DNA from: Escherichia phage nataliec
Direction: 5' to 3' (one strand)
Sequence record: MN850611.1
DNA: 64,000 nt
The notes under the pieces were generated by a model that worked only from the letters and a program-made list of their open reading frames with translations, searched no databases and was not told the DNA's origin. This document shows, piece by piece, positions 58,870-60,545 of the stretch. Both the position numbers and the translations under genes were made by a program. How positions within the stretch are numbered: position 1 is the first letter of the stretch; each line of letters starts with the position of its first letter.

Positions 58870-59290
58870 GATTTTTTATAAGGCTACTGCCATCCTTCCA
58901 TACCAAACCCTACCGAACAGAACCATGCTTTGCCATACTGGACAACACCTGACCAGACATCACTTAAAAACCCTTTTCAAAGACTCTTAAGTGATGTAAT
59001 CGAATTTTAATGTAGCTCCGATTAACTACCCATACCTTGCATTACTTCACCAAACCATACATTACCAGACCATGCCACACCTGTCCAAACTCAACCTCAT
59101 TAAAAGACCCTCTTTAAAGACCTTTTAATAAGGTAAGTCTCATTTTTATGTAGTTGAGACTAACTACCCATACCAGACCCTACCTTACCAAACCAGACCT
59201 CACCCTACCCCACCATACCGTATACTACCTCATTAAAAGACCCTGTTTAAAGACCTTTTAAAAAGGAGCCTCCGAAGAGGCTACCCAGTC
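58870..59290. repeat. upstream repeat region: phased (C/T)ACC pentamer tracts plus palindromic elements
   Basis: Tracts such as CATACCAGACCCTACCTTACCAAACCAGACC; palindrome ATCACTTAA...TTAAGTGAT at 58959-58995; paired AAAGACCCT(c/g)TTTAAAGACCTTTT elements near 59100 and 59235. Confidence 0.55.
59262..59288 (-). terminator. rho-independent terminator (minus strand)
   Basis: Minus-strand hairpin agcctc-ttcg-gaggct followed by a T-run. Confidence 0.5.
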
Positions 59291-59293
59291 AAC

Positions 59294-59734
59294 TTAGAAA
59301 GGTTTTCTGCGTTGCTTGTTAATGTTAGCTTTCATAGCAGCTAAATGGTTTTGCTGTTCAATCAGTCGTGAACGTTCTTGATGGCTAAGTGCCATAGTGT
59401 TCACATTCTCAATCGCTTGAGTGGCTTGCTTTAAAGCACGACCAATCTTACCAGACATTTTGCGTTTTGCAATAGTTGCTTGATGCTTAGGTTCGACAAC
59501 ACGATAACCAACACCCATTGAAGCAACCAGATAAATCTTCTCTTCTTTAAGAAGCTTCTCAATAAACTTCTCAAGTCGGTTTAGACGTGTAAGTGCATAA
59601 GCCTTCATTTCATCTTCGTACTTAACAATGTCACCTTGATAGGTTGGCTTCACAATACCTAAGAAGGTATCCATCTCAGAATGTGATACAGTGTCACCGT
59701 AACTAAACTTTGCTGCTAATGCTTTTGTATTCAT
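59294..59734 (-). CDS. hypothetical protein
   Basis: 146 aa ORF. Confidence 0.5.
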   Translation of the reverse strand: MNTKALAAKFSYGDTVSHSEMDTFLGIVKPTYQGDIVKYEDEMKAYALTRLNRLEKFIEKLLKEEKIYLVASMGVGYRVVEPKHQATIAKRKMSGKIGRALKQATQAIENVNTMALSHQERSRLIEQQNHLAAMKANINKQRRKPF

Positions 59735-59736
59735 AA

Positions 59737-60339
59737 TTAAACGTTACCTTCTGAAATAACTTCTACAGAAAAACGACCAAAGCGTGGGCGCCAATCACCT
59801 ACACCACAAAGGTTACCAGCATTTTCCAAAACCATCAAGAGTTCCTCTTTGGTGATTTGCTCTTCATCGAACATCAAACCAAACTCTACAGACCAGTCAC
59901 GGAAGATTGGACGGTAGCTCATAACTCGTGCTGTACCAATCTTAACAGACTTAGCATAGATAAAGTCTGGATTCTTAGCAAGTTCTTGTGGGTTTGCTGG
60001 ACAGTTCTTGATAGTCATTGGGAAGACTACATCTGTCAGCATAATGGCTCGGTCAATTACCTTACCAAGTTTGTTGAGTTTTGCACCAGACTTGATACAA
60101 GCCTCAATCATCTCACCGTTCATAACAAAACCTAGCTGCTCATCGTAGTAACAAGAAGTTACCAGTTGGCTTTCTGCTAAGAGCGCATAATCTTCGTCAG
60201 TCTTTTTACGTTTACTGGACAGAGACTTGTGATATTTTGTCAGAGGATTTAATGGGTCTGACAGCGTATCAGCGTGGCTCAGGAAAGGACGAGTACCAGT
60301 GATTTTGATATTTAACAGTTTCATAGCATTTAGCTCCAC
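59737..60339 (-). CDS. hypothetical protein
   Basis: 200 aa ORF. Confidence 0.5.
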
Positions 60340-60399
60340 ACTTTAGTTGATTGTTAAGTTGTTTGTAAAGAACCCTCAACAGAAGACTCTTTAGAAACT

Positions 60400-60545
60400 T
60401 GGTAGATTTTTAACGTGGCTACTACCATCCACCCATACCTCACCTAACAACACCTAACAACACAAAACTACACCCCACACCACCGCACCACACCAAACAT
60501 CACTTAAAAACCCTCTTAGAAGACCCTTAAGTGATGCTGGTGAGT
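60400..60545. repeat. second copy of the (C/T)ACC tract plus ATCACTTAA...TTAAGTGAT palindrome
   Basis: CACCTAACAACACCTAACAACAC...CACACCACCGCACCACACC, then palindrome at 60499-60535. Confidence 0.55.

Follow-up and report, generated by a model that had tools for sequence, protein, structure and literature searches.

Two phased intergenic regions, located at 58870-59290 and 60400-60545 of a 64,000-nucleotide stretch of Escherichia phage nataliec (MN850611.1; the whole stretch is referred to as the window), very likely contain four genes for vrRNAs that belong to a type II VIPR (Viral Interference Programmable Repeat) system; the phage itself is Felix O1-like. The kind of feature is not novel, since it has already been described in two 2026 preprints for a phage whose system is 98-99% identical. 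According to the first preprint, a VIPR system combines a small protein of the RAMP family (Vipr) with an accessory gene (vap) and with vrRNAs made of 9-16 YNNGG repeats and an invariable 3' tail (10.64898/2026.04.26.720920). What is observed here comprises the repeat code, the covariation of the tail, the RAMP fold, the architecture of the locus and genes 98-99% identical to those of the model phage SUSP1 at the same position, whereas RNA expression, ribonucleoprotein formation, DNA targeting and silencing in this phage are inferred from the preprints.

The window belongs to a Felix O1-like myovirus whose genes in this part run leftward on the minus strand. In both regions ACC triplets recur every 5 nt, as the initial annotation had noted: the pattern ACCNNACCNNACCNNACC is matched seven times, always within 59172-59219, against no match in 100 shuffles, and a motif search of the 64 kb finds 'AC' at 5-nt steps (at least 8 of 12 positions) only at 58892-58917, 59024-59049, 59152-59187 and 60417-60467. 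All four sites are on the + strand, and the rest of the window shows no such tract on either strand. Together the regions are made up of four copies of a single unit of ~135 nt, at 58865-58996, 58998-59133, 59136-59266 and 60400-60536, homologous to each other with nhmmer E-values of 1e-32 to 6e-36; searching the window with a hidden Markov model (HMM) of these four reveals no fifth, and in the close relative Shy the complete genome has units at the same two sites only. In the 77 units collected from 25 loci and the window, a unit read on the + strand comprises a short hairpin, CCCATACC followed by a pentamer run, and a longer palindrome of type T1 (CATCACTTAA...TTAAGTGATG) or T2 (CCTYATTAAAAG...CTTTTAAWRAGG). 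Such units already carry annotations as diverse as 'DR_4', 'repeat_region', 'terminator' and 'possible StbAB binding site'.

The pentamers follow the code NN-R-C-H on the + strand, which becomes (GGY-NN)n on the transcribed minus strand. Among 565 pentamers from 44 distinct tracts, positions 1 and 2 accept any base, position 3 is A (91%) or G (8.5%), C fills position 4 in 98%, and position 5 takes C (77%), A (16%) or T (8%) but never G (0%). Read on the minus strand, G1 is thus relaxed, G2 is 98% conserved and Y3 is a pyrimidine in 99.6%, followed by the free NN dinucleotide. These values mirror the contacts published for SUSP1 Vipr, in which H17 and D177 hold G1, R138 and W178 hold G2, and Y3 occupies a pocket that excludes purines (10.64898/2026.04.26.720927); all of these RNA-contact residues are present in the Vipr of the window. 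The units of the window have 11-13 in-phase pentamers each. Among the collected units the tract between anchors ranges from 47 to 97 nt in 5-nt steps, with 73 of 77 being 2 mod 5, and relatives carry 1 to 4 units per site. The guide tracts of close relatives also differ by microsatellite-like expansions (ATACC four versus six times, a 10-mer four times in Bas63, a 20-nt duplication in Shy; Table 1). Such expansion is a possible source of new repeats, even if the duplicated NNs would not fit a normal target.

Each tract leads into a 3' hairpin-pseudoknot tail of ~33-40 nt that is conserved in structure, both the hairpin stem and the 4-bp pseudoknot covarying over 52 distinct tails. Four unrelated stem sequences are all paired (AGTCTCA/TGAGACT, AATCGGA/TCCGATT, TGGTAG/CTACCA and TGGCAG/CTGCCA), and in one stem class 13 of the 16 hairpins collected have a variant whose A-C mismatch on the + strand becomes a G·U pair on the minus strand. 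The pseudoknot joins the four nucleotides just upstream of the tail hairpin to a loop segment with which they covary (GTAG/CTAC, GTGG/CCAC, AAGG/CCTT and once AAGG/CTTT). A tail of ~40 nt with conserved structure and a pseudoknot is likewise reported for the SUSP1 clade (10.64898/2026.04.26.720920).

On its other side every vrRNA tract is preceded, directly 5', by a hairpin of ~39 nt that pairs fully only as sense RNA, with 4-5 G·U pairs. On the minus-strand RNA the T1 stem extends up to ~29 bp including G·U pairs and that of T2 to ~16-19 bp, for what look like loops are closed by G·U pairs at positions that are C-A mismatches on the + strand. Relatives offer 23 sequence variants of T1, among them a double change of the inner stem (C-G to U-A) that was spotted by eye, and 33 of T2; the 3' arm of both hairpins keeps the 5-nt register of the repeats. 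The shared palindromes reported by the initial annotation are real, CATCACTTAA...TTAAGTGATG occurring in both regions (58958-58996 and 60498-60536) and the AAAGACCCTnTTTAAAGACCTTTT cores lying in the first region, inside 59095-59133 and 59228-59266, but they are hairpins between guide RNAs, their inner stems pairing only on the minus strand through G·U. Since the T1 and T2 loops and one tail pair are valid only on minus-strand RNA, and since the pseudoknot covaries, the functional molecule is RNA, in the same sense as the genes. The T1 and T2 hairpins may be processing (RNase III-like) or termination signals that separate the vrRNAs; neither has a U-tail in minus-strand folds.

The same observations bear on the proposal of the initial annotation that ACC/GGT at each half helical turn bends DNA or binds protein cooperatively, and so regulates the adjacent leftward promoters. 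Promoter-like sites do stand beside both regions (60594-60567 and 58846-58818), a gene for an XRE-type helix-turn-helix (HTH) regulator lies three genes downstream (57884-58183), and the GenBank annotators guessed at a 'binding site' for one repeat. However, hairpin and tail have pairs that form on one strand alone, as G·U, the pseudoknot covaries, which is a property of RNA, the same repeat code accompanies RAMP genes in unrelated phages, and a tract may lie upstream or downstream of promoters. Moreover, the near-identical SUSP1 system both produces and binds RNAs, according to the preprint (10.64898/2026.04.26.720920). Phased sites in double-stranded DNA are thus extremely unlikely. The 5-nt period is unrelated to the helical repeat or curvature of DNA and corresponds instead to the footprint of Vipr on RNA, with GGY held and NN exposed, and the tracts are guide-RNA genes instead of regulatory sites upstream of promoters. 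What survives of the initial interpretation, which is partly supported and about half right, is the spirit of cooperative binding at a 5-nt register, albeit on RNA and not on double-stranded DNA. Its placement of both regions upstream of leftward operons likewise holds for 60400-60545, which is 5' of the vipr-vap1 operon, and fails for 58870-59290, which lies downstream of vipr-vap1, past its terminator and before the next promoter.

The two protein genes between the regions point in the same direction as the vrRNA genes. The 195-residue protein encoded upstream is identical to SUSP1 Vipr at 192 of 195 residues (98%) and has the traits of a Vipr: it is a small RAMP homologue (~20 kDa) in which a G-loop and a thumb accompany the RRM core. 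Its gene is taken to be vipr because the constructs of the preprint place vrRNA1 directly before the vipr coding sequence (10.64898/2026.04.26.720920). The vap1 product has no Pfam match and falls into PHROG 5926, of unknown function. According to the preprint, type II vap genes are predicted to encode DNA-binding proteins and vap1 raised protection, SUSP1 has one vrRNA upstream and three downstream of its protein genes, and the SUSP1 clade is delimited by more than 90% Vipr identity to SUSP1 (10.64898/2026.04.26.720920). The window shows the same arrangement as SUSP1 (locus L008 of our collection), with long intergenic regions flanking vipr, one vrRNA upstream and three downstream. Thus the Vipr identity, the adjacent vap gene, the YNNGG repeats, the pseudoknot tail and the locus architecture all agree with a type II system of the SUSP1 clade.

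By homology to SUSP1, the minus strand would be transcribed, each RNA comprising 11-13 GGY-NN pentamers and then the hairpin-pseudoknot tail, and Vipr would polymerise along it with one protomer per pentamer; SUSP1 Vipr forms a right-handed helical filament with one protomer per repeat (10.64898/2026.04.26.720927). Vipr would sequester each GGY and expose the NN dinucleotides, which would jointly pair with a DNA target leaving one base skipped at every third position, and binding of the Vipr-vrRNA complex would silence transcription of the target. The other preprint reports for SUSP1 that the vrRNAs are made as ~100-nt transcripts and co-purify with Vipr, that the NN dinucleotides pair with double-stranded DNA with every third base skipped, that this binding represses transcription and that changing NN alone reprogrammes target specificity (10.64898/2026.04.26.720920). 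Since most natural targets given there for the SUSP1 clade lie in a satellite phage (10.64898/2026.04.26.720920), the system of the window likely serves in conflict with competing mobile elements.

Table 1. Features of the vrRNA locus in the window, with related features in other collected loci (L numbers).
Feature	Position	Strand	Details
vrRNA1 guide region	60433..60497	-	13 YNNGG repeats; NN = TT GT GC GG GG GT TT GT TA GT TA GA AT; counterpart is the upstream vrRNA1 of SUSP1 (10.64898/2026.04.26.720920)
vrRNA1 3' tail	60400..60432	-	pseudoknot strand GUGG, stem UGGUAG/CUACCA, loop with CCAC
vrRNA2 guide region	59168..59222	-	11 YNNGG repeats; NN = AC AT GG AG GA CT TT AA AG CT AT
vrRNA2 3' tail	59136..59167	-	pseudoknot GUAG/CUAC, stem AGUCUCA/UGAGACU
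vrRNA3 guide region	59030..59094	-	13 YNNGG repeats; NN = TG TT CA GT AT CT AA AT TT GA AA AA AT
vrRNA3 3' tail	58998..59029	-	pseudoknot GUAG/CUAC, stem AAUCGGA/UUCGAUU; one pair G·U on minus, A-C mismatch on +
vrRNA4 guide region	58898..58957	-	12 YNNGG repeats; NN = CT CA GT CC AT AA AT TC TC AG TT AT
vrRNA4 3' tail	58865..58897	-	pseudoknot AAGG/CCUU, stem UGGCAG/CUGCCA
T1 hairpin directly 5' of vrRNA1 tract	60498..60536	-	palindrome of the initial annotation, ATCACTTAA...TTAAGTGAT
T2 hairpin 5' of vrRNA2	59228..59266	-	holds the AAAGACCCTGTTTAAAGACC element of the initial annotation; ~16 bp stem, 5-nt loop, inner stem via G·U
T2 hairpin 5' of vrRNA3	59095..59133	-	19 bp, 3-nt loop in fold
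T1 hairpin 5' of vrRNA4	58958..58996	-	second copy of the palindrome
vipr	59737..60324	-	195-aa RAMP (Cas7-like) protein; predicted to bind vrRNA by homology to SUSP1
vap1	59294..59734	-	146-aa VIPR accessory protein; 99% identical to SUSP1 protein
Promoter-like site TTGACA-16-TATACT	60567..60594	-	between ligase stop codon and vrRNA1; 11/12 consensus matches
Putative intrinsic terminator after vap1	59267..59282	-	AGCCUC-UUCG-GAGGCU, then U-run
Promoter-like site TTGACA-17-TATTTT	58846-58818	-	for the operon starting at 58773
Unit U1	58866-59003
Unit U2	59000-59141
Unit U3	59137-59275
Unit U4	60401-60545
Felix O1 orphan unit	L007 3501-3631		= NC_005282 57724-57854
Tract expansions	L132/L134 site B; L135 site A; L006 14821-14980
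vipr-less phages at this locus	L007, L135, L259-L264		Felix O1, Bas63, LNA1, D1-2, JH2, IME338, EC6, phiWec177
vrRNA2 1-nt-skip match	L257 32-60		contig end, upstream of DnaB-like helicase gene, activated sludge
vrRNA2 1-nt-skip match	L258 1358-1386		inside amino-acid ABC transporter binding-protein gene (bacterial)

It could also be argued that the units are terminator-plus-promoter intergenic modules, which punctuate transcription and act as recombination points for gene cassettes, the tract being a decaying microsatellite. The PeSL (promoter-early stem-loop) cassettes of T4-type phages offer a precedent, as they too have repeated intergenic hairpin modules flanking a variably present gene cassette; unlike VIPR, PeSL elements are promoter/terminator modules that lack a periodic code as well as an RNA-binding protein of their own. 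Annotations based on TransTermHP label the hairpins as terminators, the two-gene cassette between the units is missing in Felix O1 and Bas63, where one chimeric unit or a couple of units are left, and expansions resembling those of microsatellites occur in close relatives. Yet 98% C at one position with free choice at two others does not arise from neutral decay, the hairpins are without U-tails, the real terminator being the separate GC hairpin at 59267-59282, and the RAMP that reads the repeats is a product of the very same cassette. Indeed, a promoter and terminator scan returns this one terminator and promoters only outside the units, with neither promoter hexamers nor a GC-rich hairpin plus U-run within them. 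We consider such modules very unlikely and see recombination at the units as a probable by-product.

A third scenario retains RNA as the substrate and dispenses with DNA guiding: an oligomeric RNA-binding protein similar to TRAP would wrap GGU triplets with 2-nt spacing in a cis-acting leader and control the downstream genes. TRAP binds ~11 triplets with 2-3-nt spacers in the Bacillus trp leader, on single-stranded RNA and with one subunit per triplet, features it shares with VIPR; it differs in being an unrelated protein that forms a closed ring, in recognising (G/U)AG, in acting by attenuation in cis and in having spacers that carry no information. The 11-13 triplets with 2-nt spacers seen here do resemble the TRAP-bound trp leader, and vrRNA1 is situated in the leader of vipr. 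However, three of the four units lie past the operon terminator, and NN is hypervariable between close relatives, as is expected of guides and not of regulatory spacers. According to the preprint, moreover, target specificity is reprogrammed through NN alone (10.64898/2026.04.26.720920). A leader of this type, which had been considered before the literature match and then dropped, is the least credible of the alternatives and hardly conceivable.

Several further candidates were tried and rejected. Sigma-70 promoters inside the units were absent from the scan. A Rho-resistant C-poor leader or antisense rut site leaves the strict 5-nt phase unexplained, and C is allowed at the N positions; two-quartet G-quadruplexes give no reason for a pyrimidine to be conserved after GG. 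Both T7/T4-type primase sites and an R-loop origin would call for a preference at the would-be cryptic base, of which there is none, and the tracts are absent from phiEa21-4. RecA/Chi-like GT-rich hotspots should have a period of 3, not 5, and consensus RNA polymerase pause arrays were dropped as Y is at -1 in only 55% here.

What weighs against type II VIPR vrRNAs is of several kinds. The functional reading depends on homology to a system for which two preprints are the only descriptions, the ~40-nt T1 and T2 hairpins go without mention in the accessible text of one of them (10.64898/2026.04.26.720920), and some repeats are degenerate, with UG or AG replacing GG. In addition, target scans with exact 1-nt-skip patterns derived from the NN strings of the four guides returned no target in IMG/VR (two guides), in GTDB species representatives (two guides) or in metagenomes (one guide). 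The vrRNA2 guide, which gives the shortest pattern (20 specified bases), has two exact metagenome matches (Table 1), when a rough estimate of collection size predicts ~1 by chance. A natural target is one matched at 80% or more of NN positions under the 1-nt-skip rule. There is no self-target in the window, where the best score is 17/24 and a 3-nt-skip control recovers the vrRNA genes themselves. A blastn comparison of the unit array with complete E. coli genomes gave no match, and a 14-mer anchor scan of IMG/VR gave mostly chance matches.

Over the 2-kb region, identity to E. coli phage vB_EcoM_Shy reaches 97%, and the phage records matched number 256, most of them by far from Felixounavirus and relatives. 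Between Felixounavirus, Mooglevirus (Mijalis, 99.5%) and Suspvirus (98.5%) the identity of vipr is 97-100%, and vipr together with vap1 (window 59294-60324 compared with L008 and L009) is 98-100% identical across the three genera, whereas the protein of the adjacent open reading frame (ORF) ORF87 (58390-58773) is only ~34% identical between the genera. Given this disparity, the vrRNA-flanked cassette looks to have been exchanged recently by recombination. Among phage records, 117 have vipr (at least 90% identity), 230 a vrRNA-like unit and 258 ORF87, and about half of the Felix O1-like phages appear to have lost vipr and vap1 while retaining one vrRNA-like unit or more. In Felix O1 there is just one, in which the site A tail is fused to the T1 hairpin and the promoter of site B, and its whole genome holds no Vipr or Vap1 ORF (best Vipr E-value 6.7; none for Vap1 at E up to 1).

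In the eight phages examined that lack vipr at this locus the unit looks intact, seven having one unit and Bas63 about two. The seven single units comprise a promoter, a T1 hairpin, ~11 repeats and a pseudoknot tail, with at least four different guide sequences, and a near-consensus promoter (TATACT or TATGCT) is present in each of the seven vipr-less relatives examined. Such orphan vrRNAs find no mention in the accessible part of the VIPR preprint (10.64898/2026.04.26.720920), and the units go undescribed in the genome papers of Felix O1, wV8 and UAB_Phi87; a literature search turned up no transcriptome of a Felixounavirus. Perhaps the orphans are not debris and are loaded in trans by Vipr from a co-infecting phage or satellite, or else serve as decoys that soak up the Vipr of a rival (an RNA anti-VIPR), with T1 and T2 as the processing signals that release them. 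We regard this proposal as tentative and rather unlikely, and the orphan guides as worth a test.

Beyond these relatives the phased tract is missing from the more distant Erwinia phage phiEa21-4, and a scan of IMG/VR with six phased ACC triplets, (ACCNN)x6, recovers at least 120 contigs. Many of them are not Felix-like, and the degenerate (NNACC)10-19 tracts that make up their arrays have other flanks. When homologues of the 195-aa protein of the window are turned into a Vipr profile, it matches an ORF within the collected stretch of 28 of the 119 loci recovered only by (ACCNN)x6, and this ORF directly adjoins the array wherever the array was located (e.g. L173, L159, L161). Much larger vrRNA-like arrays stand beside distant Vipr homologues on unrelated contigs, at L173 2210-3374, L182 2095-2562, L159 3359-5321 and L161 4597-5054; among the IMG/VR arrays one has 13 units and a AAATTAAATTCATTAAACCATTCC spacer, one consists of ~470-600 nt of near-continuous pentamers and one has units split only by CCCATTAGCC. 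The larger arrays are probably other VIPR types.

As for the neighbouring signals, the promoter-like site at 60594-60567 probably drives a vrRNA1-vipr-vap1 operon, which the GC hairpin at 59282-59267 is predicted to terminate. The site at 58846-58818 sits in a 19-nt inverted repeat (58819-58837 / 58847-58865), and the XRE-type HTH gene belongs to the operon that starts at 58773. Because this gene lies in the operon served by that promoter-like site, the inverted repeat within 58818-58865 may be an autoregulatory operator. Elsewhere in the window, 24 tRNA genes are clustered on the + strand (26006-31350), as is typical of Felix O1-like phages, and an Rfam search returns only tRNAs, with no CRISPR-DR match. 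An ORF-free stretch of 1.65 kb between convergent gene blocks (14150-15820) is dense in short degenerate repeats (CTTGTTAG, CTGTTAAGA, CTTAAAAG, CTATAAAG), and its part at 15491-15640 is rich in G and free of C. The region has no match to the unit HMM and is unrelated to the vrRNA units; it might be a regulatory, packaging or replication region.

VIPR is a recently reported class of RNA-guided DNA recognition in which the guide is read discontinuously. Recognising it here adds little on mechanism; the gains are four new guide sequences with predictable targets and evidence for movement of vipr and vap1 between three genera. The identification also settles vague annotations in hundreds of Felix O1-like phage records, several of which are therapy or typing phages.

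Kinship with the effector backbones of class 1 CRISPR systems (Cas7/Csm3/Cmr4 filaments on CRISPR RNA) exists at the level of the fold only. The window has no direct repeats with unique spacers and only two genes between the RNA arrays; VIPR is encoded by phages and has neither a repeat-spacer array nor cas1/cas2 or other cas genes. Its register is 5 nt with three bases sequestered, its noncontiguous guide reads DNA with a 1-nt skip, and the accessible preprint text reports no protospacer-adjacent motif. With SUSP1 VIPR, by contrast, the likeness is nearly complete: the same two proteins (98% and 99%) in the same locus order, the same GGY/NN code (9-16 repeats), the same hairpin-pseudoknot tail and the same genome position, between DNA ligase and the ORF87 homologue. 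The phage of the window is nevertheless a Felixounavirus (97% to vB_EcoM_Shy) and SUSP1 a Suspvirus, with ORF87 proteins only 34% identical. The guide (NN) sequences are not the same either, so that the two systems, built alike, probably differ in their targets.

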